Sequence record: NC_018854.1
Source of the DNA: Escherichia phage ECBP1
Length of the DNA: 64,000 nt
Strand: one strand, 5' to 3'
Positions within the stretch are counted from its first letter, which is position 1. The number at the start of each line of letters is the position of its first letter. Made by a program: the position numbers and the translations under genes. Below the pieces are notes generated by a model. The model worked only from the letters and a program-made list of their open reading frames with translations, ran no database searches and was not told where the DNA came from. Below are positions 1-63,465 of the stretch, in pieces.

Positions 1-2
1 CT

Positions 3-333: not shown

Positions 334-381
334 TAAGCAGGCTCTCCATAGTGGGGAGCCAAGAAGCAAAAGGAACATAAA

Positions 382-1599: not shown

Positions 1600-1606
1600 T
1601 AAACTA

Positions 1607-1639
1607 GCCTCATTCCTTCGGGAGTGAGGCATATTTTTT
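1607..1639 (+). terminator. intrinsic terminator after RNAP II gene
   Basis: GCCTCATTCC-ttcg-GGAGTGAGGC stem-loop followed by ATATTTTTT. Confidence 0.7.
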
Positions 1640-1656
1640 GCTTGGAGGTAACAACT

Positions 1657-1839
1657 ATGCTAATCCCTTTTGAAGTAATCTCTCAGTTAATACTGATAGT
1701 TTTATCTGTACTGGTTCTGTCTACAATAGTTCATGCCCACAAATCTAAGTTTGCTTATTACTACTATGGAGCATACTCACTAGGCTGCTTTGTAATGGCA
1801 GGATGGATAGCTTTTGCTATCTACTGTGTAAACAACTAA
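1657..1839 (+). CDS. small membrane protein (about 60 aa, two hydrophobic segments)
   Basis: ATG at 1657 preceded by GGAGG; track ORF start at 1624 lies inside the upstream terminator so internal start preferred; hydrophobic LILIVLSVLVL and FVMAGWIAFAIY. Confidence 0.5.
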   Translation: MLIPFEVISQLILIVLSVLVLSTIVHAHKSKFAYYYYGAYSLGCFVMAGWIAFAIYCVNN

Positions 1840-1866
1840 CCCTCCTAACGGAGGGTTTATTTTTTT
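1840..1866 (+). terminator. intrinsic terminator
   Basis: CCCTCC-taac-GGAGGG followed by TTTATTTTTTT. Confidence 0.7.
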
Positions 1867-1913
1867 ACATGTCATGTATACTAACTCTGCTATTTACTTA
1901 TGAGGAAATTGAT

Positions 1914-2747: not shown

Positions 2748-2797
2748 GGGTATTCTTTGTTTGGGGTTATAAACCCTGAGATAAAACCCTCAAGTTT

Positions 2798-2827
2798 GAC
2801 CTCCCTATTGAAGGGAGGTCTTTTTTT
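2798..2827 (+). terminator. intrinsic terminator
   Basis: GACCTCCC-tattgaa-GGGAGGTC followed by TTTTTTT. Confidence 0.7.
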
Positions 2828-2852
2828 GACTTAAGCATCCTGGAGCCAGGAA

Positions 2853-3041
2853 ATGTACAAAGAAATTGCATTCTTCTCATTCTTATTAGGTGGTTTAATA
2901 GGTGCAGGATTTGTAGCTATTTCTAATACCTACTTTGGTTCTACTCCAAATTCTGTAACGCAAACCCTCAAGCATGAATGTGAATTGAATATTCCTCGTA
3001 ATCAAAACTGTGTAATGCAGTTCGTACCGGAGAAGAAATGA
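2853..3041 (+). CDS. hypothetical small membrane protein
   Basis: 62-aa ORF; hydrophobic N-terminus FFSFLLGGLIGAGFVAI; stop overlaps next start. Confidence 0.4.
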   Translation: MYKEIAFFSFLLGGLIGAGFVAISNTYFGSTPNSVTQTLKHECELNIPRNQNCVMQFVPEKK

Positions 3042-3298
3042 ATATCCACAATCTACATTTGGTTGAGAAACTGTATGAAGAATACAACAACAACCGACAA
3101 CAATTAGCTAGTTTGAAGAAGTCACCACATATGGTGAAAGTATCATTCAATGGTACGGATTTAGGACCACAAGCCCGTACAAGAATACTTCCTGGACTAC
3201 TGTCCTTTTATCAAAGGAGGGTTGCTGTTTTAGAGAAACGCTTTGAACATTTAGGTGTAGATTTATCACCACTTCCAGATGAAGGAGAAGAGGGATGA
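3038..3298 (+). CDS. hypothetical protein
   Basis: 86-aa ORF in tightly coupled (ATGA-overlap) gene series. Confidence 0.4.
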   Translation: MNIHNLHLVEKLYEEYNNNRQQLASLKKSPHMVKVSFNGTDLGPQARTRILPGLLSFYQRRVAVLEKRFEHLGVDLSPLPDEGEEG

Positions 3299-3504
3299 AA
3301 GTAACAAATCGTTCTGAGAACAATGAGGTAACTTTCGGTGATGTGGAGCCTGCTAATGGTTTTATTTATAACCAGACAGTGTGTTTAAAGATTCACTTAC
3401 CTGATGGTAAACCTGCTGCTGTTGCTGTAGAAACTGGTAAATCATTCTGTCTATCTGCAAGTACATTCGTAACACCAATAAACCTGGAAGGATATTACCT
3501 TTGA
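3295..3504 (+). CDS. hypothetical protein
   Basis: 69-aa ORF, start overlaps upstream stop. Confidence 0.4.
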   Translation: MKVTNRSENNEVTFGDVEPANGFIYNQTVCLKIHLPDGKPAAVAVETGKSFCLSASTFVTPINLEGYYL

Positions 3505-3686
3505 AATTAACACAGTCCCAAGCAATCTTCCTTCGTATGGTTCAAGGTGGCTCTGCCACCAGCAACCGTAATAACAAAACCGCACAGTCTCTTAAGAAGC
3601 TGGGCTTAGTACAGTTCAATGCTGGTCTTGGGTGGTCATTAACCCCTATCGGTGTACTTAAACTCAATGAATTAAAAGGTAACTAA
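3501..3686 (+). CDS. hypothetical protein
   Basis: 61-aa ORF, start overlaps upstream stop. Confidence 0.4.
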   Translation: MKLTQSQAIFLRMVQGGSATSNRNNKTAQSLKKLGLVQFNAGLGWSLTPIGVLKLNELKGN

Positions 3687-4016
3687 ATGAAAACTTTATT
3701 TAAAGGTATTGCAGTAGCTGCACTGATAGCTTTGGCTCCAAATGCACAAGCTATTGAACCAGAACCAATTTTGGAAGGTGCTCAGGCTTATCTGGACAAC
3801 ACCCATGATGAGTTCGGACAAGGATTCTTCATGGGCAGTATGATCTCTTACATCGAGAACACAAATAACTGTGTTCCAGATGGTATGAAGTATTCAGACA
3901 TTCTACCTAAGATTGCCAAAGTAGTTATTTATGACTCTGCAATCCTCAAACTGAAGAATACATCTCAAATTGTTGTGTACTCAGTACACAAGGCGTATCC
4001 CTGCACTAAATCTTAA
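3687..4016 (+). CDS. secreted/periplasmic protein with cleavable signal peptide
   Basis: N-terminus MKTLFKGIAVAALIALAPNAQA has n/h/c regions and AxA cleavage motif. Confidence 0.5.
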   Translation: MKTLFKGIAVAALIALAPNAQAIEPEPILEGAQAYLDNTHDEFGQGFFMGSMISYIENTNNCVPDGMKYSDILPKIAKVVIYDSAILKLKNTSQIVVYSVHKAYPCTKS

Positions 4017-4050
4017 TCAGTAATCCCATTAGCTTTAGGAGAGTAAGTAA

Positions 4051-5103
4051 ATGGCAAGCATTGACTCCTTGACTGTATGTAATTCACGTCAAGCTCGTAA
4101 CTTTATTATTCGTGCCCTGAAAGCAGGTAACGTACCATTCCTGACTTCATCACCTGGCATGGGTAAATCTGCAATCATTCGTTCTATTGCAGAAGAATTT
4201 GGTATGAAGTTGATAGATCATCGTCTGTCTACTTCTGCCCCAGAAGATCTTTCTGGTCTACCATTCCGTAATGGTGACCGTGCAGAGTTTATTCCATTCG
4301 CTGATTTATTCCCTATTGAAGGGGATGAAGTACCAGAAGGTTATAATGGCTGGCTCCTGTTCCTTGATGAGTTCAACTCAGCTAAGAAAGAAGTAGTAGC
4401 TGCTGCATACAAACTAATTCTCGACCGTATGACTGGTCAGAAAAAACTTCATCCTAATGTGATGATTGTCTGTGCTGGTAACAAAGCTACTGACCGTGCC
4501 ATTGTTAATCCTCTGGGTACTGCAATGCAGTCTCGTGTGGTTCACTTTGAAATGGAACTTAACTTCGACATCTTTGTTGAAGATGTAATGATTCCTCAAC
4601 AATGGGATGAACGTCTGGTTGCATTTCTACATGCTAACCCAGGTTATCTGCATGACTTCGACCCAGCCCATAAGAACAAAACATTCTGTTGCCCTCGTAC
4701 TTGGGACTTTGTTAACAAAGACCTTAAGAATCAGCCGGAAGGTGCTCTTCCTGATGAAGATTCTATCTACTATGCAGGTCACGTTACTGCTGGTAAGGCT
4801 ACAGAATTTGTTCAGTTTACCCAGGTATATAATCGTATGATTACGATTGAGAAGGTAGTCAAAGACCCTATGGGTTGTGCACTACCAGAAGATAACAACC
4901 TGTGTTGGGCTACCGTTAACCATCTAGCTAACAAAACTACTGAAGAGAACTTCGCTGATGTTCTTCAGTACATCGAACGCTTTAAAACGTTCACCCATAA
5001 GATTCTGTACTTCCGTACAGTAGGCAGAACATTACCAGAACTTCAGGCTACTCCTGAATGGCGTAAGGCTGCTGCTAATATCTCTCGTTACATTCACGGA
5101 TAA
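4051..5103 (+). CDS. AAA+ ATPase, MoxR-like
   Basis: Walker A SSPGMGKS, Walker B LFLDEFN; 350 aa; immediately followed by vWA partner. Confidence 0.8.
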   Translation: MASIDSLTVCNSRQARNFIIRALKAGNVPFLTSSPGMGKSAIIRSIAEEFGMKLIDHRLSTSAPEDLSGLPFRNGDRAEFIPFADLFPIEGDEVPEGYNGWLLFLDEFNSAKKEVVAAAYKLILDRMTGQKKLHPNVMIVCAGNKATDRAIVNPLGTAMQSRVVHFEMELNFDIFVEDVMIPQQWDERLVAFLHANPGYLHDFDPAHKNKTFCCPRTWDFVNKDLKNQPEGALPDEDSIYYAGHVTAGKATEFVQFTQVYNRMITIEKVVKDPMGCALPEDNNLCWATVNHLANKTTEENFADVLQYIERFKTFTHKILYFRTVGRTLPELQATPEWRKAAANISRYIHG

Positions 5104-5107
5104 AACA

Positions 5108-6283
5108 ATGAACCAATTTCCTCAGCACACACTTAGTGATGAACAACTCATGCGCGAATATGACCGTATTCAGGCGCAGGCGTTTCTCGGACGCAGTGCT
5201 GCCTTCTTTGGTTCATTACTATGTAGTCTTAAATTCTCATGGAAACGTGAGGATTGTCCCACTGCATGTACTGATGGGATAGAACTCCATTTCAACCCAG
5301 ACTTCTTTATCTGGATGTGTCCAGATGCAAGGGAAACAGTATTAATGCATGAACTATGGCATGTGGCATATCTACATGACATCCGTCGTGGAAGCCGTGA
5401 CCCGGAAGTCTGGAACCAGGCATGTGACCACTTCATTAACCTTCAGTTAGAGGAGGATGGTTACAAGTTCACTGGTATTAATGAAGGCATTTGCAAAGAC
5501 CCTCAATATAAAGGATGGGTCGAAGAAGACATCTACGATGACCTGATGAAGAACCCTCAGAAAAGGCAGAAGCCGTCAGGGGGTGCTGGAGCAGGTCTTG
5601 CTGGCGACATGAAATCCCCCACTTCGGGACAGTCCCAGGGTGCTGTCGTCAACAACGTAGTACGTGCAATGCAGAGCCAGAAGATGGCTGGTGGAACAAT
5701 GCCCGGTAAGGGTGCTGGTCGTATGGAAGAGGTTATTACCCAATTCCTTAAACCAGTGGTTCCATGGCAAGAAGTACTCATGAACTTCTTTACCGACATT
5801 GATGACACTCACTATACGTGGGCCAGACCTAACCGTCGTTACACTGACATTTATCTACCTTCCCTGGAAGATGATGAAGGACGTCTACGACACCTAGCCT
5901 ACTTTGAGGATGTATCTGGTTCTATTAGTAGTGCTGACTCTCTGCGTTTTAACTCAGAGGTTGCCTACGTTAAGAGTCAATTCAATCCTAAGAAGATGAC
6001 CCTAATCACCTTCGACGATGTTATCCAGGAAGAAATAGACATCACTGAAGAAGATACTTTCGAAGAGATTAAGATTACTGGACGTGGTGGTACAAACCTG
6101 GAACCAGTACGCGAATGGATTATTAAGAATAAGCCAACCGCTGCAATCATATTCTCTGATATGTATGTTCGTCCAATGGAAGAATTGCCATTTGATATTC
6201 CTATCATCTGGTGTGTTCTGAATAATCCTAATGCTACCGTACCTTTTGGGGAGGTAGTTCATATCCCTAAAGGAATGAAATAA
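5108..6283 (+). CDS. vWA-domain protein with N-terminal HExxH putative metallopeptidase-like domain (MoxR partner)
   Basis: 'MHELWHVAYLHD' HExxH motif; Gly-rich linker; C-terminal vWA-like region; canonical pairing with upstream MoxR ATPase. Confidence 0.7.
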   Translation: MNQFPQHTLSDEQLMREYDRIQAQAFLGRSAAFFGSLLCSLKFSWKREDCPTACTDGIELHFNPDFFIWMCPDARETVLMHELWHVAYLHDIRRGSRDPEVWNQACDHFINLQLEEDGYKFTGINEGICKDPQYKGWVEEDIYDDLMKNPQKRQKPSGGAGAGLAGDMKSPTSGQSQGAVVNNVVRAMQSQKMAGGTMPGKGAGRMEEVITQFLKPVVPWQEVLMNFFTDIDDTHYTWARPNRRYTDIYLPSLEDDEGRLRHLAYFEDVSGSISSADSLRFNSEVAYVKSQFNPKKMTLITFDDVIQEEIDITEEDTFEEIKITGRGGTNLEPVREWIIKNKPTAAIIFSDMYVRPMEELPFDIPIIWCVLNNPNATVPFGEVVHIPKGMK

Positions 6284-6789
6284 TGGTTGTTAATGGTAAT
6301 TCTCTATATCGTTCATCTCAGTTGCTGGATGTCCCAGACCGTAAGATATCCGAGCATGGTGTAAGCTATGGATTAGGTGAAGCTGGTTATGATATTCGTA
6401 TCAAACAGGATATTACCTTCTATCGCTTATTTGGGTTGATTCCAATGGTGAAAGTCGTTGATGGAGGTCAAGTATCACGCCATCTAGGTAAGTTCGCGTT
6501 GGCATCTGCAATTGAGAAGTTCAACATGTCCCCATCCTGTGTAGCTATCGTTCACGATAAGTCTACATGGGCAAGACGTGCATTATCTGTGTTCAATACC
6601 GTAATAGAACCAGGATGGAAAGGGTATTTGACTCTTGAACTGGTCTATCATGGTCGTAAGAAACTACATATCCCGGCTGGTGCTGGGATAGCTCAAGTAT
6701 TATTTCATCTGGTTCAGGAACCTGCTAATTACAATGGCAAGTATATGAACCAGGAAAACAAACCAGTGGCTGCTAGACCTTCAAAATAA
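6283..6789 (+). CDS. dCTP deaminase / dUTPase-family enzyme
   Basis: 'GLGEAGYDIRI' and 'IEPGWKGYLTLELVYHG' match dCD/dUTPase signature motifs. Confidence 0.6.
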   Translation: MVVNGNSLYRSSQLLDVPDRKISEHGVSYGLGEAGYDIRIKQDITFYRLFGLIPMVKVVDGGQVSRHLGKFALASAIEKFNMSPSCVAIVHDKSTWARRALSVFNTVIEPGWKGYLTLELVYHGRKKLHIPAGAGIAQVLFHLVQEPANYNGKYMNQENKPVAARPSK

Positions 6790-6819
6790 AAGGCTATCCG
6801 GCTTAATCAAGGAAACAAC

Positions 6820-7029
6820 ATGTCAGTATTTCAAGTAACTCATGCAACCTCAAATCTACGTTTAACCATTAATGCTGCAAATGTAGTTGCAGTGGAACAG
6901 ATTCCACTGTCTGATTGTGCACGTATTACGCTTGTAAATGAAGGTACTTTGGATACCAAAGAAAGCTATCGTTCAGTACGCAATTACCTGAAAAAAGCTC
7001 TTGCTCCTGCAAGCAAAGACGCTGAGTAA
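6820..7029 (+). CDS. hypothetical protein
   Basis: 69-aa ORF followed by weak stem-loop. Confidence 0.4.
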   Translation: MSVFQVTHATSNLRLTINAANVVAVEQIPLSDCARITLVNEGTLDTKESYRSVRNYLKKALAPASKDAE

Positions 7030-7102
7030 GTAGCTGCCTAAATAGCCCAGCATAGTTGGGCTATTTGAGAAGAAACTAACTCAACCTCACATAGGAACCA
7101 TC

Positions 7103-7345
7103 ATGGAATCTTTAGCAGCAATCCTTGTTTTCTTATTCATATTAGCTGTATACCTTATCCCTACTATCATTGCTTTTGCACGAGGCCATGCCTCTAAGTG
7201 GGGTATTGGTGTACTCAATATCGTATTAGGCTGGTCATTAGTATTCTGGGTAGTAGCACTGATTTGGGCACTGTCTAATAAAGGTCAGAATCAAGTTACA
7301 AACGTAACTGTTGTTCAAACCAATAGTGGCAGTAAAACAGAGTAA
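7103..7345 (+). CDS. small inner-membrane protein, Imm-like (superinfection-immunity family candidate)
   Basis: Two TM segments; 'YLIPTIIAFARGH...GWSLVFWVVALIWAL' resembles superinfection immunity protein family. Confidence 0.45.
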   Translation: MESLAAILVFLFILAVYLIPTIIAFARGHASKWGIGVLNIVLGWSLVFWVVALIWALSNKGQNQVTNVTVVQTNSGSKTE

Positions 7346-7419
7346 CTAACCTAAGCATCATTGCATAGTGGTGCTTGTGGAAGTTACTTCCAGCTCATTG
7401 CTTATCCATCTCCTAACCC

Positions 7420-7450
7420 AAGCCCACCTAACCCGTGGGCTTTTTTATTT
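7420..7450 (+). terminator. intrinsic terminator
   Basis: AAGCCCAC-ctaaccc-GTGGGCTT followed by TTTTTATTT. Confidence 0.7.
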
Positions 7451-7462
7451 ACAGGTACTCTT

Positions 7463-7849
7463 ATGTCAAGCAGACAAAATGGTAAGTCTATCCTGCAAGG
7501 ACTGGACTTAAGTAAGCTGGAACAAACTGCAATGCTTACTTTAGGTAAAACCATACATGACCAAGTGGAAATGGATGGGATTAGTTCTGATGTCTATGCA
7601 AAAATGCAGGCTCTTATTCAGAAAGGATGGCCCAGCAGAGTATTTAATATACCTACATACATTCCCCCAGAACCCCATCTGAAATCTAAGGTAGACCGAA
7701 TCATAGATAAGTTCTGGCTTAACCCATGTGGAGATGACATGCATCTTTACCTGGCTCAAATACAAAAGAATCCTCGTACTAAGGATGTGTTTAAAAGTAA
7801 GAGCACTACCCATCACTACCCATGGTATAGAAGGGGTAGTAAATACTAA
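7463..7849 (+). CDS. hypothetical protein
   Basis: Internal ATG chosen because track start 7361 precedes the terminator; 128 aa. Confidence 0.45.
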   Translation: MSSRQNGKSILQGLDLSKLEQTAMLTLGKTIHDQVEMDGISSDVYAKMQALIQKGWPSRVFNIPTYIPPEPHLKSKVDRIIDKFWLNPCGDDMHLYLAQIQKNPRTKDVFKSKSTTHHYPWYRRGSKY

Positions 7850-8292
7850 TGCGTATCCCATTCCTAAGAAAAAGGGAACGAAATCCTGTTCTTTATAATA
7901 AAGGCATAGAGGATGAGTATGAACTCAACCGTAAAGCTCGTTCCTACACAACAAAACTATTCATGGGGACTAACAACCCTGATAGATTATTGGACTTTGT
8001 TTTTGAACAAGTCTTTATCATATACAGCTTAGCTATGTCTGCTGGTTCACGAGAAGTAAGTGATAAGGCAAGACATGCTCTCTGTATGCTCCGTAAAGAG
8101 TATGAAGCCCTCATGTATGAAGACTTGTACTCCTTTAAAGAAGAAACCGCTGTAGCATGTTCTGTGGCTCTTACTGAAGGTGTAGCAGTATTACAAGAAC
8201 TACCCCGTAGTGAGTTTAAGCTGGTATACGTTCAGGTTAAGAGAATCACAGAGACAAGAAGTGGTATCACTAACTATCTAAGGTCATTCTAA
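7849..8292 (+). CDS. hypothetical protein
   Basis: 147-aa ORF with overlapping start/stop junctions. Confidence 0.45.
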   Translation: MRIPFLRKRERNPVLYNKGIEDEYELNRKARSYTTKLFMGTNNPDRLLDFVFEQVFIIYSLAMSAGSREVSDKARHALCMLRKEYEALMYEDLYSFKEETAVACSVALTEGVAVLQELPRSEFKLVYVQVKRITETRSGITNYLRSF

Positions 8293-9236
8293 TGATTAAG
8301 GCATCAGTAATTGCAGATTCCGTTCATCCAGAAACAGGAACCCGTATCACAACCTTTGAATTGGTTTATCCCCGATTCATTCACAGTGAGTTTATGACTC
8401 ACCGTGTATTCAACCGCAATGCTTCAAGTAGCCGTGCTATTCCTACCTCTAAGTTAATCGAACAGGTTCGCAATGAACCAGTGATGCCAAGTCACTGGGG
8501 CAAGAACCAGAAAGGTATGCAAGCAGATGGAGAACTCACTCCTATGGAGATTGAGGATGCTAAGTTTATCTGGGATAACGCTGCATCTGCTGCTGCTGTG
8601 TATGCTGAACAGCTACGCCGTGGGCAAGTACATAAACAGATTGTTAACCGTATTCTGGAACCCTTCACACATATCCGTGTAGTGGTAACCTCAACTAGCT
8701 GGGCTAATTTCTATGGACTGCGTGACCACAAAGATGCACAACCGGAGATTCGTGAACTGGCTCAAGCAATGCGTAAGGCACATGAAGAAAGCACACCAAG
8801 AGCATTACCGTATGGGCAATGGCATTTGCCATATATTGCTCATATTGACCGTGTTGGGGCTTACAATTTCTGCAAACGTAATCGAATTACACGCGATGAA
8901 CCAAGTGATGCAGAAGTGCATGGACTACTTCTCAAGGTAAGTGCTGCACGCTGTGCTCGTGCTTCCTATAACAACTTTGAGGGACGTCCCTCTACTATCG
9001 AAGAAGATCTTGGCTTATTCGCTAAGTTAGTGGAAAACCAACCTATTCATGCTTCACCAACGGAACATCAAGCTACGCCTATGAACCTTGGTGAGAAGTA
9101 TGTGAATAACATGAACCCAGTTACCTGGGAACAAGGTGTTACATCCATGGATAAAGAAGGGAATCTGTACTCAGGTAACCTGCTCCACTTTATCCAATTC
9201 CGTAAATTAATTCCTGGTGAGACTATTACTGAATGA
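8292..9236 (+). CDS. thyX: flavin-dependent thymidylate synthase ThyX
   Basis: ThyX signature 'RHRVFNRNASSSRAIP' (RHRxxxxxxxSxR) and overall length 314 aa. Confidence 0.85.
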   Translation: MIKASVIADSVHPETGTRITTFELVYPRFIHSEFMTHRVFNRNASSSRAIPTSKLIEQVRNEPVMPSHWGKNQKGMQADGELTPMEIEDAKFIWDNAASAAAVYAEQLRRGQVHKQIVNRILEPFTHIRVVVTSTSWANFYGLRDHKDAQPEIRELAQAMRKAHEESTPRALPYGQWHLPYIAHIDRVGAYNFCKRNRITRDEPSDAEVHGLLLKVSAARCARASYNNFEGRPSTIEEDLGLFAKLVENQPIHASPTEHQATPMNLGEKYVNNMNPVTWEQGVTSMDKEGNLYSGNLLHFIQFRKLIPGETITE

Positions 9237-14896: not shown

Positions 14897-14958
14897 TAGC
14901 CTGTTCAAATAGCCTCACTTATAATAAAGTGAGGCTATCTTTGAAGAGGAAATAAGCT

Positions 14959-15354
14959 ATGTCTAAAGTATTCAGAAGTAATCGCAAAGCAACTGATGAA
15001 GACATCATTCGTATGAATGCTGTTGGTCTGTCCCTCGCAACTATCGCTAAGACGTTGGGGGTTCACCCAACCACAGTCACTTTGCGATTGCGTTCTCTAA
15101 ACATTGAACCAGCCGACACACGTCGGACGTTCATGGAAAACGTATTACGACCTTTACCAACCCATGTGGCTGATTGGCTGTCAGAACAAGTTGGTCCTGC
15201 TTATGAGATTCGCTCATATGTAAGAGACTTGATTCTGGAGGCATATAATAATCGCCACCTTAACCAAGAGAGTGAGCATGACAAGTTCATCCGTTTGTAC
15301 GCTGGCAAATACGGAAGCCTGGTTCCGGAAAGCAGTAGCAAATCCAACAAGTAA
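14959..15354 (+). CDS. helix-turn-helix DNA-binding protein
   Basis: 'IIRMNAVGLSLATIAKTLGVHPTTV' is a typical HTH. Confidence 0.5.
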   Translation: MSKVFRSNRKATDEDIIRMNAVGLSLATIAKTLGVHPTTVTLRLRSLNIEPADTRRTFMENVLRPLPTHVADWLSEQVGPAYEIRSYVRDLILEAYNNRHLNQESEHDKFIRLYAGKYGSLVPESSSKSNK

Positions 15355-27737: not shown

Positions 27738-28155
27738 TATCGTGAAGGGTTCTGTTAGAATCCTTTGAGATAGGAACTCCTATCATAACCTTTCTTATCT
27801 TAATCTTTGCCGTATGGCACTGACGCTAGGGTTTATGCCCATCCGTCAGGTAGACTATTTTAAGAATGGGTTATCACAGAAAATGTAAAGCAACATTCGG
27901 GTTAATCAATGGCCTCTCCCTATAGGGGCCATTTCTGAATGATAGGCTATATCCCAAAGGTTAGTATCTTTGGGATAAGGCTTCAGATCCCTTATCAAAC
28001 TAACCTCTCAATGTTGAGCATTTTAATCACATAAGCCCCTATATGGGCTGGGTTAAATGTCGGATAGCATAGCTACCTACAGCATCGAATTGTTAGGTCT
28101 TACATGCAACATAGGGTATAAAGGGAGGACTCGTCCCCTCCCTCCTATTATAATG

Positions 28156-28225
28156 GTCGAGGTAGCACGTAGGCATGTGCAGATGGTCGCTACTTCTCTC
28201 GCTGGTTCGAATCCAGCCCCCGACC
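28156..28225 (+). tRNA. tRNA-like element, probably degenerate tRNA
   Basis: 7-bp acceptor (one A-C mismatch), U8-A9, D-arm GCAC/GTGC, canonical T-arm GCTGG-TTCGAAT-CCAGC; anticodon stem pairs poorly. Confidence 0.3.
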
Positions 28226-39700: not shown

Positions 39701-41427
39701 TGAATAGCTTCTACACGGTTAGTGGAACCAGAAACAGCTTCACGGATTGCTGGGTTAGTTTGTTCCAATTCTACCGGGTCAAACTTCATTGCTTGAGTTA
39801 AGTCAGCAGCATACTGGGTAGCAGCAGCTTTCTCTTCTGGAGAAATATCCATTGCATCCACTGCTTCCTGAACAGTTGCTTGAGCTTGTTCTGCCTGAGC
39901 AGTAGCTTCTTGTGCAGCAGCGTTAACCGTAGCATCAGATACGGGGGATGCTTGTTCATTACGCTTAGCAACTTCTTCCCCACGTTGAACCAGGATGTTA
40001 GTAATAGGAGAAGCTACTTTTGCTAGTGCCTTACCAGCCAAAGAAGCACCAGCCAGGGTAGTACGTACAGCAGGACCAACGGCAGCACCAGCAGCCTTAA
40101 CAGTTGCACCAGGAGCTTGAGCAACTCCAGCAGAACCGAAGCCATACAATGCACCAAGACCGGTTTGTTCACCCACACCTTTAAGCAAATCACGCTTAGC
40201 ATCTACATTACCTTGAATTGCCTTGTTCTGTGCAAACTGACTTGTACCAGACTGGATACCTTCTTCTACAGTCTCACGCAGCATGTTAGAACCAGCACCA
40301 GCCAGTGAACCTACCTTAAGTGGATTAAGTTCAAACTTGGATACCAGTGGACCAGTAAGAGCAGCAACCGGAGCAGTTAAGCCAGCAGCAGTAATACCCG
40401 TTTCAGATGCAGTCTGGCGACGTGCTTCTTCAGGAGATAAACCGTCTTTAATATGCTGTTGGTATACAGGAGATTTAGCAGCCAATTCACTGAATGGCAT
40501 TTCCATAATTTCATTAGCAGTCTGTTGGTATGCACCACCAGCTTCCATACCACCAATTGCTATAGCAGGTGCAGCAACACGACCAGTAGCTAATGCAGTA
40601 CGTGCAGGACGTGAACCTAACTCAGCAGCTAAGGTAATGCCTTTAACAGCTTTATCACCACCTACCATTACTTTACCGAGTGCAGATACACCACGAATCA
40701 ATGGACCGCCGGTAAAGAGAGAACCAACACCCTCAGCCAGACCATCAGTAGCAGCCATGCCATTGGACAAGGTGTTAGCAACAGAATCGTAAGCATCTCG
40801 ACCAATGCGAGACAGGGAAGCAACGAGATCACTTTCTCCTTTAGCAATATCCTGCTTATAGAGTTTCTCGTTTTCCTGTGCAGATATTACGTTCTGGTTC
40901 TGTACTACATTACGACGAGCATTTAATGCATCAGACTGTAGGTTGTGTACACCTTTATTCAACCAGTCAAGACCGGAAGCAATGGTTGCCCCGGCATTAT
41001 CATTGACCAAGCCTGTACCAAGAGCAGCAATGCCCCCAAGAGTATTAGCAACACCAAGACCAACACCAGAAAGGGTATCACCAAGTGCTTCACCATATGT
41101 ACGACTCTTAGTTAAATCACGACGAACAGCATTAGCTGCATTGACACGAGCATTGAGAATGTCCATTCCTTGCTCATTGCCATACTTGTTTATGATTTCA
41201 AGAGGAGAGGCATTAGTAAAATCTGCCTGAAAAGAACCTGGGTCAAATGCACCAGCACCTAAGTTACCAGCACGGCCTGCCTGTAATTGGTAAGCGTTCT
41301 GTGGGGTTAGTTGGAAGGGGCTTTGCCCTTGTTCAGCTTGTTTCCGAGAGGTTGCAGTAGAGACATCGACTTGCTTAGCAGTAGTGATGCTGTCTGCGAA
41401 ACCTGCCAGACGGTCAAATGTTGACAT
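30715..41427 (-). CDS. giant virion-encapsidated RNA polymerase (N4 gp50-like vRNAP)
   Basis: About 3570 aa single ORF; central region has T7-like RNAP-type motifs ('YVEADGVTNGPINAMVLM', 'KNPLTITIYGSGARGIAGK'); start taken at ATG 41427 (track start 41445 is TTG). Confidence 0.8.
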   Translation of the reverse strand: MSTFDRLAGFADSITTAKQVDVSTATSRKQAEQGQSPFQLTPQNAYQLQAGRAGNLGAGAFDPGSFQADFTNASPLEIINKYGNEQGMDILNARVNAANAVRRDLTKSRTYGEALGDTLSGVGLGVANTLGGIAALGTGLVNDNAGATIASGLDWLNKGVHNLQSDALNARRNVVQNQNVISAQENEKLYKQDIAKGESDLVASLSRIGRDAYDSVANTLSNGMAATDGLAEGVGSLFTGGPLIRGVSALGKVMVGGDKAVKGITLAAELGSRPARTALATGRVAAPAIAIGGMEAGGAYQQTANEIMEMPFSELAAKSPVYQQHIKDGLSPEEARRQTASETGITAAGLTAPVAALTGPLVSKFELNPLKVGSLAGAGSNMLRETVEEGIQSGTSQFAQNKAIQGNVDAKRDLLKGVGEQTGLGALYGFGSAGVAQAPGATVKAAGAAVGPAVRTTLAGASLAGKALAKVASPITNILVQRGEEVAKRNEQASPVSDATVNAAAQEATAQAEQAQATVQEAVDAMDISPEEKAAATQYAADLTQAMKFDPVELEQTNPAIREAVSGSTNRVEAIQKMADLVNTAEDPNVQMEAAIQMYDNIMSMDSFINRDPGALANLEQDSPAAAIVDQFSGLMANVQNTPKVLRAFRAIHSMIQEQAEAGKLKATEEANQAQANNIAMAADVSPEVLDADSVNMVLKHASEGKITLGNRQRAALQSAAALLQGAREFDAKAEELGLRPQDIVSKQIKTDESRSNEGQYSALQHAKRIRSAYNSGNFDLASAYLSDFMKFAQHMQNKVGALNEHLISGNADKNKSVHYQALSPSREWVRSRTGLGVNPYDTKSVKFAQQVALEAKTVADIANALATAYPELNVSHVKVTSLDSRLNKPAAQVVKEFRQGGLDATQSQQTNEPVNQVDETPALVQEDTTTVQPKDKPVVENKTAPTKETSPKAEEVSTTESERDAYVKENTISQETLNKNGDRRESPWLFADGTVVGSNGDHISLSDVFGHDGYRDMSLDTGAIRSTFYKGSEQPFVSLQLFDNQKLTAEQFNTVQSFVEANNALIQIGVDTSERNTNNVEKEEVSLAQLKADYTVGGKPLSEMETVFPVYNNDKTPNQFLKAFSLPEEPKSRTIGSESPLTDVKKALSSAARFEAFTQKENNALTSDVIKRYQDLFEFGETLKTTLSDRLAKFLANKNVGKRFAEGTEANRWVGGKLLNIVEKDGDTFKFNDQLLETAVLAGLQWRLTATQNAAVKDMKDVAAITGVEASLLPEGILADFENAQTLVEATNSLAQKIESYWGLNRNPNAPLGYTKGIPMAMATEILSSLIEMGEVKESMLDVSEIDPESNKTVGLYTIEKLDDNDAINKFPTAIEETVLLEPVEKLYLGDDIPSVAQTQLRNPAVKNTPEQKAALKAEQATEFRVHMPMVNFYEALGCDNILELMGAGALNPELLNVNTAKSLEGKNLSVSMAYDSLFGVINQIKEQENGLDTPIHYGYNMTRVGRMQMLGKNNPQSSKLVREAILPTFSTIDLSNENSQTFSDFQLGLAQALGIKVHKMSREVMSDELTKALEGKLKPAVDMMVEFDKSGHLPADAVDILKTSLGSDKSFVALMALMEYARYLNSDDRTNFNTPLYVEADGVTNGPINAMVLMTGGKFTPDWIKNTAKGGLFFGKAGKTMNEHHSHEDSVDLYEASTNGLQQALNELRSTYRNNVPVMNQMNHLQKLMDLFIKDFNLNEDGTLDLKRGIAKNPLTITIYGSGARGIAGKMVSAITDVIYERFSDVLQARAADPSISPAMAMFGKEAASEADAQAMLDTFLTSMEALTGNVPVMRKGELSIQQVDGALTGKLDPQKFTVSGNALKNLQENMLHLFVEPMRTGIRNTVGEGLMYSTENLQKATQIQSLVLQDMFQQRVQEKLAEKEKDPTWKKGDFLTQKELNEIQESLSPLAPMIETGSQTFYIAGSENTDVANQVLATNLDDRMRVPMSIYAPSQAGVAGIPFMTIGTGDGMMMQTLSTMKGAPKNTLKIFDGMNIGINDITDASRKANEAVYTSWQGNPIKNVYDSYAKFMKNVDFSKLSDKTKQAIAKSALEYDQREGATDDLLRVGAEQIERNLRNIALGVDIRHKVMNQVQVTVDQMAAVGAPYVNDGKISLEGLTVDQQVAKLNELFDAELNKRRDAVRAAKAEPAKEVPAMEQVGRVLKSGVRLLSNTAITKLAKEMSPEQQAVLKEVQKSLAAKDYKVVYGTPSQLDAYAIEKNITRPAPEDIEAAEAGNAYGWTNFDDKTIYLVTPSLETLVHELVHASTFESVLAHYEGTPNEAVQNIEDLMNQFRTLDVKNEPPAVREAYADALNTINGHLSNGFIEPAMAKAAALNEYMAWGLTNRELIGKQKKTTALKAMVQAVYEAIKRLVFGRKKAPANADDMFSGLLFNSAVVMRGQAPTAAVAKDTTLFHNKAYGDNTRLEELGKTFDKLITDYIGSEPVQQVIRKGKFSDAVVNATKVTRDVQAHGFTMNMQEQRLFTNIVAALATEAAINPAAMARAQEYYTHVTKNLTVEAFMADPDSTNPADRYYAQQKFDTIMGANNIEFDAQGRSSLLPTFVGLAMVSEEVRKVLADIPVMKADKKSGNTVDAMLTNIGTAAMASLNARVAGDTKATNVQEGMDALAQTIMQTSLNAESFYDSVATPTGNAIDRANQYLVDSIDALSTRALEGAREIAANTKNPLVKGAVHAAQLVAAIATEKNGAIVAEGVMAAMNQGKVWQPFHDLVNDIIGRTKSNASVYDLIKAVRAQVQADRQQFREHLPTTIASKFSRKLTNEEWKAMHTGMGKTDLAVLRDTMSLDEIRDLLTDQKIVDREVNKLEADLQKQAGRNWPLINRKSKQLAQYMIKGTVGNNLLRNATAISRLLGERKTTRSVVDVAQLDKLITLYALEAMNKTDREMLSSLAQTEIEGMDFATSYLVGQRKDEMAKAKSDSRATLNQYKGYIPSENKQGVNLIVAEDSQFADLIEKSYVRLGTYQGSSANRGPARSYYFAPVQAQAPFSQGILQNVRNTAGGVDLGTGFTMGTMVAGRITDKPSVDRITKALARGERGNEPLLPVYDANGNVVAYEQSIDPNMLKHIEGENHLARAIGVWRGRQVEEAKAQRFNDMLIENLHSMYENDIKMSASNKSQYVNLLGSKLDPVTADALKLMNSETRQKAESLFGPGELWVRRDMLNDALGYRAASVGDAWSGNSRWSPETLDTFKKAMLGVFGNRAYKYVMGGENLVQNLVKEAKTLIVVKSVVVPAVNFLANLYQMVARGVPVKNIAKSISQKTAEINQYLKSRLRQVDAEAELRAATNPNQIRKLKAEIQSISDSHKRLSIWPLLEAGEFSSIADAGIGRDDILITEGKLHEYMEKLADKLPKSVRNAGRYALITKDTALFQGIQKTVEYSDFIAKAIIYDELTQRKGKTREEALGRVTEEFINYDRLPGRFRGYMESVGLMWFYNFKIRSAKVAVSMIRNNPVHAAMAMLAPTPTMFGNVGLPIQDNIFSIAAQGNLGYSFGFGQGLRAHNLNPWLNLTN

Positions 41428-41490
41428 AGCATGATTCCTGTTCAAACTTATATCGTATAAGAAGATTCACTGTACAGTAAGTGAATGTAA

Positions 41491-59249: not shown

Positions 59250-60860
59250 TCACACAATGTATGAACGTAGGGGGTTAACACTATCTTCTTCTTCATCATC
59301 CCACATTGGGTCACCCTTATTATCCACCATAGTCATACCTGCTTGTGGTTTCCAAGGATTGAGATAACCCAGCATGGAGATAGTATCAATACAGTCATCC
59401 TTACCTTTGATTCCATTAATGGTAGCTAGTTTAATCTGGCCCATGAACAGACCCATAATAGTTGAATCTCTCAACTCTTCCGGGAAGTACATCTTACCAG
59501 CTTTGAACCATGGAACTACCAGGTTAAAGCGTGACAGCTTAGAGGTTACAGGACGTATACCCGGCTTACCACCTTCAGAAGATGCAAAGTTAAAGAAGAC
59601 ATTACGGTTAATCATTTCTTTCTGAAGGAGCGAAATGAATCCACCTTGCTGCCCTGTGATTTCGACACCAACGTTTTGTGGTTGGTATTCTTGAACCAGA
59701 CGGAACAGGTCATCAAAGTTTTTATCCATAAGCTGACGATTAGCCACACCATCAACCCAGAACCAATCTCCATTAGAACTATAAGCCCAAACTGATATGA
59801 CACTATAGTCACTGGTCTGTTTCTCCGATGTAGCAAAGTCAGTTGTAATATAATAGTTGTAGCAGGACTTCATCCTTAATAGTTGCTGTCTGCTATACCA
59901 TCTAATTTCACTATCCTGAACCAGTCTCTCATCTTCAGAGCTAATACGGAGCATAAGTTCCTGATAGAAGCCTGCCAGCTTACCCGTCTTAACTGCCATG
60001 TCATATTGGGCTTTGATGTAGTCGTAGGAGAAACGGTCATCCCATGCACCTTGAAATTCTTCCCTACTACAAGGGAACTTCTCACACACAGGCCATACGT
60101 TGACATCCCATGCACCAGACTCTACTGCTTCAATGATAATATCTTCCTTATTAAAGGGAGTACCATTGAAGATTACTTTACGACGGGTAGGATCAAGAGC
60201 ATGGTTCACACCTTTATAGACGGTATCCTTAATAGCTTCCATACTCGTCTTGGAGTTAGCATCACCATCACTAATCAAGTCATCCAGTACGCATAATGTT
60301 GGACGTTTACCATATATCTTCGTACCACGAAGACCTGTCTTAGCACCAAACAGCTTAACACCTAGACGATGTCCTTCTACATTACGAAACTCTAACAGGT
60401 TATCCGTAAAGGTAGCTTCAGGTATCCATTGCTGAAGGAACTCACTATTCTTGTAACGAAACTCAATGTTCTTACGTGCAGATTTAGCACCGTTATCCAT
60501 TGAGTCAGATACATAAATCATTCCTTCTACTTTACCCAGGCTTGGTAAATGCCCGAACACTGCCAGGAACAATGTAAAGTATTCCATGAATACAGCAGTC
60601 TTACCTGCACCACGGAAGCACAGATTAACTACATACTGGTTCGGGCTAATCATCTTATCCAACATTTTCAGGTGAACTGGAGGTGTTTTGTTGGATTCAC
60701 CCTCTTTACCATTAACCAACTTAATAAAGTTGGCAAAGGTAAGAGCAAACTGACTAGGAACATAGTTGGAAGAATTAAGGTGGGAGTAATCCACCTGGTC
60801 TAGCCATTCATCCAGTTCCTGCTTAATTAACTCAGACATCTGTAATGTCCTCATCTGCAC
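59250..60860 (-). CDS. terminase large subunit
   Basis: Walker A-like 'RGAGKTAVFMEY', Walker B 'LCVLDDLISDGD'; 536 aa with C-terminal nuclease-sized domain. Confidence 0.8.
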   Translation of the reverse strand: MQMRTLQMSELIKQELDEWLDQVDYSHLNSSNYVPSQFALTFANFIKLVNGKEGESNKTPPVHLKMLDKMISPNQYVVNLCFRGAGKTAVFMEYFTLFLAVFGHLPSLGKVEGMIYVSDSMDNGAKSARKNIEFRYKNSEFLQQWIPEATFTDNLLEFRNVEGHRLGVKLFGAKTGLRGTKIYGKRPTLCVLDDLISDGDANSKTSMEAIKDTVYKGVNHALDPTRRKVIFNGTPFNKEDIIIEAVESGAWDVNVWPVCEKFPCSREEFQGAWDDRFSYDYIKAQYDMAVKTGKLAGFYQELMLRISSEDERLVQDSEIRWYSRQQLLRMKSCYNYYITTDFATSEKQTSDYSVISVWAYSSNGDWFWVDGVANRQLMDKNFDDLFRLVQEYQPQNVGVEITGQQGGFISLLQKEMINRNVFFNFASSEGGKPGIRPVTSKLSRFNLVVPWFKAGKMYFPEELRDSTIMGLFMGQIKLATINGIKGKDDCIDTISMLGYLNPWKPQAGMTMVDNKGDPMWDDEEEDSVNPLRSYIV

Positions 60861-61521
60861 GTACTAGTTTAGAACCAGCAACCTCTTTGGTAGGTACACC
60901 ACTATTGATTGCATTAATTTGCTGCTCAGCTAATGCAGCAAGTGTTGCCTTGAGGTCAGTTAATCCAGAGTTCTCTCTCAAGTCCAGATTGATATTCGTT
61001 ACCTGGTCTTTTGGTTTAGCTAAGTGGGTAAGGATAGAGTTAGCTGCATCACATCTTACCTTCTCACTTGCTGCTGTAGTCATCAGTTCAACCTGAACAT
61101 TGATTGCCTTCTGATAATTATCCTGGTTCACAATCCACACTGGAACCAAACTTTGTTCCATGATGAGGTTAACTAACTTACCCCTGTGATAAGCAGATAC
61201 ATAAGCACTAATATCTTTCTCGCTGGTTCCTCGTGCAACAAGTTCTGCTTGTCGGTTAGGGAATGTCTTGAAGTAGGCTTCCTTATTGGAATAACCCATG
61301 TGTTTATAAGTCACATACTGAACTGCATTCATGTAGTCCTGTGTCTTAAACTTACCTTCCTTCATTACACCAGAGTAGGAGATAAAGTTTTCACGGAAGG
61401 ACTCAGCAACCAGTTGGTCTTGGGTTATGTTGTTGATCGTGTCTACCAACTCCTGGGTCACACTGTTTTTGAAGTTAGCAGGTAAGGCATTAACAATCTG
61501 CTGCTTAGTTAGTTCACTCAT
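60832..61521 (-). CDS. putative terminase small subunit (by position)
   Basis: 229-aa ORF immediately upstream of and overlapping the large terminase gene. Confidence 0.35.
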   Translation of the reverse strand: MSELTKQQIVNALPANFKNSVTQELVDTINNITQDQLVAESFRENFISYSGVMKEGKFKTQDYMNAVQYVTYKHMGYSNKEAYFKTFPNRQAELVARGTSEKDISAYVSAYHRGKLVNLIMEQSLVPVWIVNQDNYQKAINVQVELMTTAASEKVRCDAANSILTHLAKPKDQVTNINLDLRENSGLTDLKATLAALAEQQINAINSGVPTKEVAGSKLVRADEDITDV

Positions 61522-61692
61522 ACTTATCTCGCTACAAAGTTATGTCTATTAAAGAAGATTCTTTTCTTGGGGTGAGTTACCCCTTGAAGAAACGATACCA
61601 TACAGTTACACTTTAGTCATGATATAGAAAAAGTTCATGATACTAAATAGTATGTAATGTTCCGATGACCCTATTCCCAAAAGGAGTAACCT

Positions 61693-61983
61693 TTGAGAAT
61701 CTATATGAAAGCCCCAGACTCTAGTGACAAGTACTTCGAACTAGACCACACTAAGATTGGCTTCCTTTCAGATGATATTATCATTACACATGATGAAGAC
61801 ACCTACCATGAATTAGCTGGGATGATGCTGTTAGAGAATCGTCCAGGCATTAAAGTCTTAGAACCAAGAGAAACTTACTCTTTAGATAAAACAATTTCAT
61901 CTCTTGTGTTCTTCACAAAATTACCTCATAGTGTCTCCGTCAGGCGAAGCAAAGACAGTGTTCGGATGACGGTGACGATGTGA
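61693..61983 (+). CDS. small protein, member 1 of tandem paralog family
   Basis: TTG/ATG start after AGGAG; contains 'IIITHDEDTYHELAGMMLLEN'. Confidence 0.5.
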   Translation: MRIYMKAPDSSDKYFELDHTKIGFLSDDIIITHDEDTYHELAGMMLLENRPGIKVLEPRETYSLDKTISSLVFFTKLPHSVSVRRSKDSVRMTVTM

Positions 61984-62183
61984 TTAGTCATGCCGCCTAG
62001 TAGACAGTGGCGGTACTCGTAAAGAGTTAATAACTTCTACAGTCAGGGTTGCCCGGCTCCTTTCCTACCTAGTAGGCTAACGATACACATGTATCTAGGG
62101 TGATGAACTGACCCGTGATTGAAAACGGTAAGGGGTAGAGTCGAGAGGCTCTACCCCATTTCTTTTTCTGGAGGAATGCAATT

Positions 62184-62531
62184 ATGAGCATCTACGCTTT
62201 TGATATTGATATTACCGGAGTACTTCATAAGCAAGGACCTTATCTACTTGGGGAACCAGAAACAGTAAGTAAGTTCATTGCTCCCTGGCAATCTGTGTTC
62301 TTACCTAACTGTGAAGAGTCCCATGAGATTGTTGGCTGTCTTTTCTTATCAAACCTACAACTCAATACTGAGATACTTACCGAACCAAAGGTGTATGACC
62401 TCACTCGTTATGACGGATTCAATGAGTTCTTCCCTGGTATACGTTTCTATAAAATACCCGGTTGGGAATTGATAGTTGACCATAACGTCTTTAATAAAAC
62501 ACTTTCCATTTACTTCAGACCACTTTCCTAA
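62184..62531 (+). CDS. small protein, member 2 of tandem paralog family
   Basis: GGAGG RBS; contains 'VFLPNCEESHEIVGCLFLSN'. Confidence 0.5.
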   Translation: MSIYAFDIDITGVLHKQGPYLLGEPETVSKFIAPWQSVFLPNCEESHEIVGCLFLSNLQLNTEILTEPKVYDLTRYDGFNEFFPGIRFYKIPGWELIVDHNVFNKTLSIYFRPLS

Positions 62532-62548
62532 AGGAAGGAGAATCAATC

Positions 62549-62863
62549 ATGAAATTCATAATGACCATCCCCAGTTTTGCTGAAAGGGAGTCTATGTATA
62601 CAAATGACTTCTCTTTAGAAGAAGTCATGAATAGTAGCCCCCAACATGTAATCCTAGTTCCTACCTTAGAGGACTACCATGAAGTAAGGGGCCAGTTATT
62701 CTTAGCAGGTAATGACCGTAAGGTTGTATGTATTGTCCCACCTTCCGTCTACTCCTTTAGTGATGCATATGACGCTCTACCTTTCATGATGGTATCCGAT
62801 GAATACCAATGGGATAGTCGCCATAAGAATGAAGAATACCATTACTACTATGTAAGGAAGTAA
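62549..62863 (+). CDS. small protein, member 3 of tandem paralog family
   Basis: GGAGAA RBS; contains 'VILVPTLEDYHEVRGQLFLAGN'. Confidence 0.55.
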   Translation: MKFIMTIPSFAERESMYTNDFSLEEVMNSSPQHVILVPTLEDYHEVRGQLFLAGNDRKVVCIVPPSVYSFSDAYDALPFMMVSDEYQWDSRHKNEEYHYYYVRK

Positions 62864-62866
62864 GTT

Positions 62867-63181
62867 ATGCACTTCTTCGGTTTAAGTAGTCGTAGTACAT
62901 GTCCCCTTAATCTGGGAGTAGGTAAATCCCCCTGGTTGGGAATAAGTAAACCCATGACCATGTACTATGAACCCTGTAAAGAAGCAGATGAGTTCATAGG
63001 AACCTGTCTAATGTTAGGTGCACCTATTACCTTTATTAAGATAAATACTTCCATCGAAGTTCCAGAGGATGTCGCTGTATACATCTTCTCCTCCAGTGAA
63101 CCTATGGTAGCTACTACTCTTACAGGCAGACTCATTACCCTCTATCCTTCCTCATATTTATCTAGCGACGGAAGCTACTAA
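62867..63181 (+). CDS. small protein, member 4 of tandem paralog family (divergent)
   Basis: contains 'YYEPCKEADEFIGTCLMLG'. Confidence 0.45.
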   Translation: MHFFGLSSRSTCPLNLGVGKSPWLGISKPMTMYYEPCKEADEFIGTCLMLGAPITFIKINTSIEVPEDVAVYIFSSSEPMVATTLTGRLITLYPSSYLSSDGSY

Positions 63182-63465
63182 TGGTTATCAGTAAAATTTA
63201 TTCAGAGCTACCTGGGGATGAATACACCCACCATAAAGAATTAACTAACCTGGATGCTGATGTACTCATACTGGTTCCAGACGAACAGTCCTTGCATGAA
63301 CTACAAGGATTACTCTTCTTATACAATAAGAATTCGGAAGTACATCTACTTGAACCAGGAACACCGATGTCCTGGCAGGGTAGCTTCAGTCCTTGGCATC
63401 TCAATACGGACAAGTACATACTATCCTTCGAGGATAACACCCCAATCTATAAGGAAAGACAATGA
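63181..63465 (+). CDS. small protein, member 5 of tandem paralog family
   Basis: contains 'LILVPDEQSLHELQGLLFLYN'; start overlaps upstream stop. Confidence 0.55.
   Translation: MVISKIYSELPGDEYTHHKELTNLDADVLILVPDEQSLHELQGLLFLYNKNSEVHLLEPGTPMSWQGSFSPWHLNTDKYILSFEDNTPIYKERQ

Follow-up and report, generated by a model that had tools for sequence, protein, structure and literature searches.

A family-wide conserved, putatively bidirectional promoter region between the terminase-side and right-end genes of Escherichia phage ECBP1

The short gap that separates the leftward late genes of Escherichia phage ECBP1 from its rightmost genes is almost certainly a promoter region, and its sequence points, on balance, to a compact bidirectional promoter of the σ70 type, that is, one used by the host RNA polymerase, in which the −10 hexamers of the two directions overlap. 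We analysed 64,000 nucleotides of ECBP1 (NC_018854.1; hereafter the window), a Gamaleyavirus of the N4-family Schitoviridae that resembles phages G7C, Bp4 and PD38 and is about 95% identical to PD38 and Bp4. The gap occupies positions 61522–61692 (171 bases). On one side lies gp69 (60832–61521, minus strand, 229 amino acids), which is homologous to N4 gp69 and is annotated as the small terminase in some relatives; the next minus-strand gene after it, 59250–60860, matches Terminase_6C. On the other side lies a gp70 homologue (61693–61983, plus strand). Every open reading frame (ORF) of the roughly 31-kb leftward late block (30715–61521) is on the minus strand, gp69 being its first gene, and the gp70 homologue is the first rightward gene. 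Because the gap precedes the first gene in both directions, promoters must be located within it. A first-pass annotation, made from the sequence alone, had described this region (61521–61693) as divergent, and both its boundaries and the arrangement of the flanking genes proved correct. In complete relatives the gap lies 1.2–3 kb from the right physical end of the genome, and in ECBP1 the gap region is mildly AT-rich, with a GC content of 0.36 versus about 0.41.

The elements of the proposed promoter, whose leftward and rightward halves we call P_L and P_R1, are the following:

61519–61521, minus strand: start codon of gp69 (small-terminase-like), from the ORF list, N4 gp69 homology and the annotation of relatives.
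61610–61615, minus strand: putative P_L −10 hexamer TAAAGT, nearly invariant (1.7–2.0 bits per position over 19 lineages), its second base being A and its sixth T.
61633–61638, minus strand: ATGAAC at the putative P_L −35 position, 17 bp from TAAAGT; TTGxxx in 14 of 19 lineages.
61584–61589, plus strand: putative P_R1 −35 hexamer TTGAAG, 17 bp upstream of TACACT; TTG at this place in 13 of 19 lineages.
61607–61612, plus strand: putative P_R1 −10 hexamer TACACT, which is TAGACT in N4, KP8, JWDelta and Axy11 and overlaps the P_L −10 hexamer by 3 bp.
61617–61624 and 61635–61642, no strand assigned: the two copies of a direct repeat, TCATGATA; in each the minus strand reads TATCAT (a 5/6 match to TATAAT) and the plus strand CATGAT.

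Since the pattern TTGNNN-17-TANNNT is common in the window, the case for a promoter rests on conservation. When 281 bases around the gap served as query in a distant-mode search, N4 and Klebsiella phage KP8 were matched, the latter only in the non-coding block just upstream of gp69, and in an alignment GATTCTTTTCTTGGGGT...ACCCCTTGaAGAAAC was nearly invariant over three genera and in an uncultured lineage, L111. An early impression from BLAST that the intergenic DNA is more conserved than the coding DNA is untrue overall: identity to N4 and KP8 is 0.64–0.67 for the gap, 0.72–0.73 for gp69 and 0.56–0.58 for gp70, and the conservation is block-wise.

To the Enquatrovirinae sequences we added gp69 loci fetched from other subfamilies, and 19 distinct Schitoviridae lineages were aligned on the core, CTAAAGT(C/G)TAAC in the gp69 direction, which is found exactly once per locus and once in the window (61605–61616, minus strand); CTAAAGTSTAAC likewise has a single match in the window and one per related locus. 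Information in this alignment peaks at TTG (1.5–1.7 bits), at C-TAAAGT-cTA-A (1.7–2.0 bits) and at CAA (1.0–1.1 bits), with most other columns below 0.8. CAA is TTG on the opposite strand, and it stands exactly 17 bp from TA(G/C)ACT, the complement of AGT(C/G)TA. Outside the Enquatrovirinae, TTG is present in 11 of 14 lineages on the leftward side and in 8 of 14 on the rightward side, the background per offset being 0.2 and 0.4 on average and 2 and 3 at most. The bases beside CAA differ among lineages (AAACAA, TATCAA, GCGCAA, ACCCAA, ACACAA, TAGCAA, ATGCAA), so it is the trinucleotide itself that is kept. The 17-bp spacing is also kept, despite diverged spacers, in phages of E. coli, Klebsiella, Achromobacter and Stenotrophomonas. 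When eight taxa were scanned, TTGxAx-17-TAAAGT was the only leftward σ70-like site present at the same position in all eight, the variants being ATGAAC in the window and in Moo19 and an 18-bp spacer in Rexella; the rightward TTGxxx-17-TA(G/C)ACT was present in seven, Philippe having its TAGACT in a different register. Within Gamaleyavirus the hexamers are invariant and variation is concentrated in the spacer between TTGAAG and TACACT, roughly at 61593–61601. Finally, the core and a second element, the ACAATAGG box, are invariant across lineages whose gp69 proteins are only 54–60% identical. The two-sided geometry and its conservation across these lineages are direct observations.

If the host σ70 polymerase does use these hexamers, the leftward transcript would begin near G61603 and would carry gp69–gp68 (terminase) and the downstream late genes, and the rightward transcript, predicted to begin near A61619, 16 bp from the leftward start, would be the gp70 mRNA. 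Roughly 10 bp would need to be opened by both polymerases, which would make the two directions mutually exclusive. A hairpin, GGGGT/ACCCC, which immediately precedes the rightward −35 hexamer, would fall at about +20 to +34 in the 5′ leader of the leftward transcript. By analogy with N4, leftward transcription would be late: the late genes of N4 are transcribed leftward by the host σ70 polymerase with N4's single-stranded DNA-binding protein (SSB) as activator (PMC4496689), and N4 late promoters are only remotely similar to σ70 promoters (PMC9163698).

The ECBP1 site shares with the N4 late promoters (σ70 with N4 SSB, gp45) a position ahead of the rightmost leftward late genes, in the homologous gp69/gp70 gap, the direction, conserved sequence and a weak consensus; it differs in that we read it as bidirectional, of which the N4 literature examined makes no mention. 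Bacteria have a known class of bidirectional promoters in which the −10 elements overlap (Warman et al. 2021, summarized in PMC10268837); their divergent starts are 7–25 bp apart, most often 18 bp, a definition into which the predicted ECBP1 starts fall. The opposite-strand −10 elements of that class share base pairs, as the putative ECBP1 hexamers do, and according to the same source polymerase binds such promoters in one orientation at a time. The commonest class in that account, however, has 18 bp between starts with −11A and −7T reciprocally paired, whereas the ECBP1 hexamers are offset by 3 bp; the ECBP1 site also differs in having a conserved −35 TTG on both sides and genes in both directions. 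So read, the element is ordinary in type and unusually well conserved across the family.

A number of observations weigh against a bidirectional σ70 promoter. The match to consensus is weak, 7/12 leftward and 8/12 rightward (TTGAAG-17-TACACT, 4/6 plus 4/6, with a spacing inside 16–18 bp), and a promoter consensus scan with a cut-off of 9/12 returned no site in the gap. TTGNNN-17-TANNNT occurs 17 times in the window, so a single instance means little. The leftward TTG is lost in this phage (ATGAAC, 3/6), and the repeat copies offer possible lineage-specific alternatives, TTTAGT-17-TATCAT leftward and TAGTCA-16-CATGAT rightward. With the leftward TTG absent here and better-looking TATCAT hexamers present, TAAAGT may not be the hexamer in use. 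For N4 and KP8, the site that the promoter scan ranks highest in the rightward direction is another one, TTTAGA-16-TACAAT, and its −10 overlaps the leftward −35. The G at −15, the C at −13, the CTAA in the spacer and the ACAATAGG box are conserved and yet not accounted for by σ70 contacts, and the core is a unique motif whose conservation is stricter than is usual for promoters. Lastly, the lineages are related to one another, so binomial values overstate their independence.

The first-pass annotation had also proposed σ70-like hexamers, pairing TTGAAG with TACAGT (61601–61606). Both are present, but only 11 bp lie between them, and with the required σ70 spacer taken as 16–18 bp they cannot form a σ70 promoter; TTGAAG is probably a genuine rightward −35 hexamer whose partner is TACACT, 17 bp away, rather than TACAGT. 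The TCATGATA direct repeat that it pointed out exists as well, and is at chance level: an exact 8-mer direct repeat arises in 25% of shuffles of the region and, among 374 real tiles of 171 nt taken from the window, in 114. The repeat was found only in Gamaleyavirus and Moo19, and is missing from N4 and KP8. Its third feature, the GGGGT-gagtt-ACCCC hairpin, is likewise in place, and a hairpin with 5 bp or more, four or more of them G-C, forms in 2% of shuffles but in 46 of the 374 real tiles. Folding energies of the leaders are ordinary for both predicted transcripts (z = −0.45 and −0.36 against shuffled sequences). The features named are therefore genuine but individually unremarkable; what is clearly non-random is conservation, namely that of the block 61557–61595 and of the core. 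What stands of the proposed promoter/regulatory hub is the promoter region; the hairpin and the TCATGATA repeat have no demonstrated regulatory role.

Two further elements lie upstream of the core in the leftward direction:

61670–61677, no strand assigned: box CCTATTCC, which reads GGAATAGG leftward and is the counterpart of an (A)CAATAGG box that is invariant throughout the family.
61640–61653, no strand assigned: hairpin B, ATACT-aaat-AGTAT, which adjoins the putative leftward −35 and lies in the predicted rightward 5′ leader.

The (A)CAATAGG box is found once per locus in about 20 diverse Schitoviridae lineages (loci L002, L003, L017-L021, L120-L178), 12–37 nt upstream of the leftward −35 and, in all but Rexella, 23–37 nt upstream of it. 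Towards gp69, a C/G-rich run and a hairpin whose sequence varies usually come after it, and it shows no enrichment elsewhere in the window. By eye, hairpins of different sequence occupy the place of hairpin B in N4, JWDelta, Axy11, L169, L156, L128 and Philippe. CTAA appears three times, at offsets 0, +11 and +18, with one unit inside the leftward spacer. When the hairpin flank, the core and the CCTATTG box were each searched for as a recurrent promoter consensus, none was enriched in the window or in N4 1–9000. We also considered a rightward σ54 promoter at the CCTATTGCC box, defined by GG and GC 10 nt apart (TGGCAC-N5-TTGC), and rejected it: the ECBP1 sequence there, GACCCTATTCC, lacks both dinucleotides at the required positions. 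By eye, a σ54-like TGG-N9-TTGC fits N4, KP8, JWDelta and Axy11. The surroundings of the core vary among subfamilies. In Rothmandenesvirinae, Erskinevirinae, Philippevirus and others at least one extra gene stands between the conserved promoter core and gp69, that of Rexella being annotated as N4 gp48-like, and several phages of other subfamilies have tRNA genes on the rightward side of the same gap.

On the gp69 side of the core lies the hairpin block, whose hairpin module recurs near the left end of the window:

61557–61595, no strand assigned: nearly invariant block GATTCTTTTCTT-GGGGTgagttACCCC-TTGAAGAAAC, in which a hairpin stands between a T-rich and an A-rich flank; kept in N4, KP8, Moo19 and L111.
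61569–61583, no strand assigned: hairpin GGGGT/ACCCC, with a 5-bp stem and a 5-nt loop.
2752–2776, plus strand: second copy of the hairpin module, ATTCTTTnnTTGGGGTnnnnnACCC, conserved in Gamaleyavirus.

On the predicted leftward RNA the block would span about +9 to +47. Its flanks are invariant even in KP8-like phages, where the apical stem shrinks to GGT/ACC. Among 11 distinct Enquatrovirinae sequences, pair counts show four of the five apical pairs never varying and the fifth broken in KP8-like sequences; KP8-like sequences lose two to three apical pairs, and elsewhere variation is confined to the loop. An outer helix (61557–63 with 61587–93) shows a single compensatory change, C-G to A-U, in L111. 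Covariation is negligible, amounting to one compensatory cell and a score reached by 40 of 500 shuffles, and the hairpin is conserved as sequence, not through covariation. It may contribute to mRNA stability, serve as a protein site or act as an upstream promoter element.

Several known classes of hairpin were compared with this one. It is not an intrinsic terminator, as neither strand has a U-tract (the stem is followed by TTGAAGAA on the plus strand and by AAGAAAAG on the minus strand) and the terminator scan made no call; with intrinsic terminators it shares a G+C-rich intergenic stem-loop with an adjacent T-rich run, but in ECBP1 the plus strand has its T-run ahead of the hairpin, and on the minus strand it is an A-run that follows. 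Nor is it a hairpin promoter of the N4 virion RNA polymerase (vRNAP): its loop is of 5 nt and neither strand has a GC-TCC-GC core, whereas all the early promoters that we extracted (N4 90, 557 and 4546; PD38 86, 562 and 4719) have a 3-nt loop in GC-TCC-GC followed by T/ATGG. Like the vRNAP early promoters P1–P3 of N4, it is a small G+C-rich inverted repeat beside TTG in an N4-family genome; the early promoters of N4 and PD38 have a 5–7 bp stem with a 3-nt loop core and lie leftmost in the genome (PMC4496689), in contrast to the ECBP1 hairpin near the right end. In the middle promoters of phage LUZ7, transcription starts at a G that lies about 15 bp downstream of a G+C-rich hairpin, and in ECBP1 there are G residues (61586, 61589) 10–13 nt downstream of the hairpin centre. 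LUZ7 stems, however, are of at least 6 bp with loops of 3–4 nt (PMC9163698), as against 5 bp and 5 nt in ECBP1 and 3 bp in KP8-like phages, and N4-type promoters of the phage RNA polymerase RNAPII are described as AT-rich rather than as hairpins (PMC4496689). Rfam gave no credible match to a known RNA family, the best being mir-279 at 22.9 bits against a cut-off of 56. A scan of IMG/VR with the hairpin-flank pattern returned known lineages only, and of the 56 matches in a metagenome scan with GCAATAGG-N(36-64)-CTAAAGTCTAA nearly all were due to chance, only those in KP8-like contigs being real.

The module ATTCTTTnnTTGGGGTnnnnnACCC, which has 18 specified positions, occurs exactly twice in the window (61558–61582 and 2752–2776), both times on the plus strand, versus 0.04 matches expected even when three mismatches are allowed. 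The second copy closely follows the stop codon of a Hoc-like decoration gene and precedes a canonical terminator (2798–2820 plus a T-run) by about 20 nt, and it may be an independent strand-specific module. N4 has an analogue, TTTCTTGGGGTtaacgACCC, after gp18 (N4 7983–8003; L031). At the 2752–2776 site, some Gamaleyaviruses carry an inserted superinfection-exclusion gene. Elsewhere on the plus strand, long hairpins at 7040–7066 and 14909–14938 (AAATAGCC...GGCTAT, then TTTGAGAAGAAAC and CTTTGAAGAGGAAA) have a tail that resembles TTGAAGAAAC; their T-runs are weak, and they may be a distinct type of terminator.

Conserved elements that σ70 contacts leave unexplained invite other readings of the gap. 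The composite of ACAATAGG box, hairpin B, three CTAA units and hairpin D could be mainly a platform bound by a protein of phage or host, for instance a replication origin, a packaging-related site beside the small-terminase gene or an operator, to which the hexamers would be secondary. We consider this rather unlikely as the main function, although it would account for the uniqueness and excess conservation of the composite and a good deal fits it: the core and the ACAATAGG box are each present once per genome region and stay invariant where gp69 identity is at 54–60%; CTAA is there three times; G−15, C−13 and the box are outside the σ70 contacts; the hairpin module is found twice on the same genome strand whatever the local gene direction; and the region is mildly AT-rich. 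The enrichment in AT is slight, however, and at 1.2–3 kb from the right end the gap lies away from the terminal repeat. The accessible literature yielded neither a binding protein nor data on an origin or pac site, and a TTG exactly 17 bp away on both sides is what a promoter would predict but an origin would not. The binding and promoter roles are compatible; an operator might, for instance, overlap a promoter. A second alternative is that the core is a promoter for the phage's own T7-like polymerase, RNAPII (gp15/gp16), directed rightward to gp70 and the right-end genes, with CTAAAG/CTATAG as the initiation region. CTAAAG and CTATAG do resemble positions −5 to +1 of T3 and T7 promoters, and more distant family members have CCTATAG-type motifs in the same gap. 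The reading is also in keeping with reports that right-end ORFans of LUZ7 are transcribed at the middle stage (PMC9163698) and that N4 RNAPII promoters are AT-rich from −7 to +2 (PMC4496689). A polymerase-specific promoter should recur, however, and the core does not reappear ahead of middle genes, occurring once in the window and being unenriched in N4 1–9000; mapped N4 RNAPII starts are limited to the left half of the genome (PMC4496689); symmetric TTG at 17 bp is a σ70 signature and not a T7-like one; and conservation among phages whose hosts differ so much is more readily explained by a universal host σ factor than by a phage polymerase that co-evolves. For these reasons we think a phage RNAPII promoter decidedly unlikely.

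It is about equally doubtful that the hairpin and its T-rich flank together form an autonomous module, strand-specific and acting at the level of RNA or single-stranded DNA, in processing, stability or priming, and that its adjacency to the promoter is incidental. The two exact plus-strand matches, the same pair in N4, the compensatory change in L111 and a perfect 7-bp outer helix in KP8 (GAUUCUU/AAGAAUC) speak for such a module. Set against this are the negligible covariation and an apical stem that is not maintained in KP8-like phages. In addition, the second site is a stem-loop in a 3′ untranslated region ahead of a canonical terminator, annotated in relatives as stem_loop or terminator, and a strong terminator at 30685–30710 ends the rightward block, so that no rightward transcript is expected over 61557–61583. 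Very improbable, in our judgement, is the original first-pass version, a rightward TTGAAG...TACAGT promoter with the hairpin and TCATGATA as regulatory elements and the paralog array as its main target. TTGAAG is probably a true −35 and the region does precede the rightward genes, but TACAGT is 11 bp off, the repeat is at chance level and lineage-specific, a terminator-like hairpin stands between gp70 and the array, and the most conserved promoter points the other way. The bidirectional σ70 promoter remains the reading that we prefer, and it can be extended. The family-wide single-copy cassette, made up of the ACAATAGG box, a hairpin, three CTAA units overlapping two back-to-back −10 elements and a second hairpin, would then be more than a promoter, namely a mutually exclusive switch, with the T-tract and GGGGT hairpin as a separate strand-specific signal. 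Such a switch, which we regard as speculative and on present evidence unlikely, would, with the onset of replication, turn host polymerase away from the accessory genes on the right and towards the packaging and late genes on the left, and it would possibly be read by a conserved phage protein or the phage SSB.

The rightward unit bears on the claim that the region is a hub for the paralog array. Two features are relevant:

61681–61695, plus strand: Shine-Dalgarno sequence AAGGAG and TTG start of the gp70 homologue; the TTG aligns with the ATG of N4.
62132–62167, plus strand: terminator-like hairpin and T-run, with a 9-bp G+C-rich stem (62132–62157, GGGGTAGAG...CTCTACCCC) and then ATTTCTTTTT.

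The most likely start of gp70 is the TTG at 61693, with AAGGAG 6 nt upstream; GenBank records of the relatives G7C and UE-M6 annotate an ATG four codons downstream (61705). Because gp70 is 28–31% identical to the array ORFs at 62184, 62549 and 63181 and has in common with them the motif HE(L/I/V)xGxL(F)L, it is itself the first, distant paralog. BLASTP detected no similarity to the paralogs in the ORFs at 62867 and 63462, and gp70 and the array ORFs (61693–63465) are all in PHROG families of unknown function. The terminator-like hairpin is 27 nt before the ATG of the next paralog (62184), an equivalent site is found in N4 (L002 3678–3705), and in JWDelta a terminator is annotated at the same place. 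Its stem begins with GGGGT and ends with ACCCC, as does the hairpin at 61569–61583. Since this hairpin separates gp70 from the next paralog, the array beyond gp70 would be reached only by read-through. The hub description therefore applies to gp70, as the first paralog, but not in the same way to the rest of the array, and the array was misjudged as the main target, the best-supported conserved promoter being directed leftward to the terminase operon.

The determinants of late promoters in N4-family phages are poorly described in the accessible literature, and the targeting of host polymerase in these phages is only partly understood. A geometry shared by phages of E. coli, Klebsiella, Achromobacter and Stenotrophomonas and by uncultured lineages provides a concrete template, and exact predicted positions for the start of the terminase and late block allow SSB-dependent activation and competition between the two directions to be tested. 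The analysis also corrects the promoter assignment of the window and flags conserved boxes that lie outside current promoter models. In engineering the right end of these therapeutic-candidate phages, this short region is best kept intact.

Other features of the window were noted in passing. A second TTGAAG-17-TAAAGT, at 14941–14969, spans the start codon of an ORF for a helix-turn-helix (HTH) protein and was judged a chance occurrence; this ORF (14959–15270, plus strand, 104 amino acids) lies inside an apparent 375-nt gap and has weak matches to HTH_38 and HTH_23, below the Pfam cut-offs. A probable bidirectional terminator, an 11-bp G+C-rich hairpin with A-runs and T-runs at its sides, is found at 30685–30710, where the rightward block converges with the virion RNA polymerase gene (30715–41445). 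ARAGORN made three tRNA-like calls on the plus strand (28155–28226, 28518–28596 and 29299–29373), with the unusual anticodons Ala-cgc, Cys-aca and Ile-aat, within a roughly 2-kb ORF-free stretch at 27738–29676.

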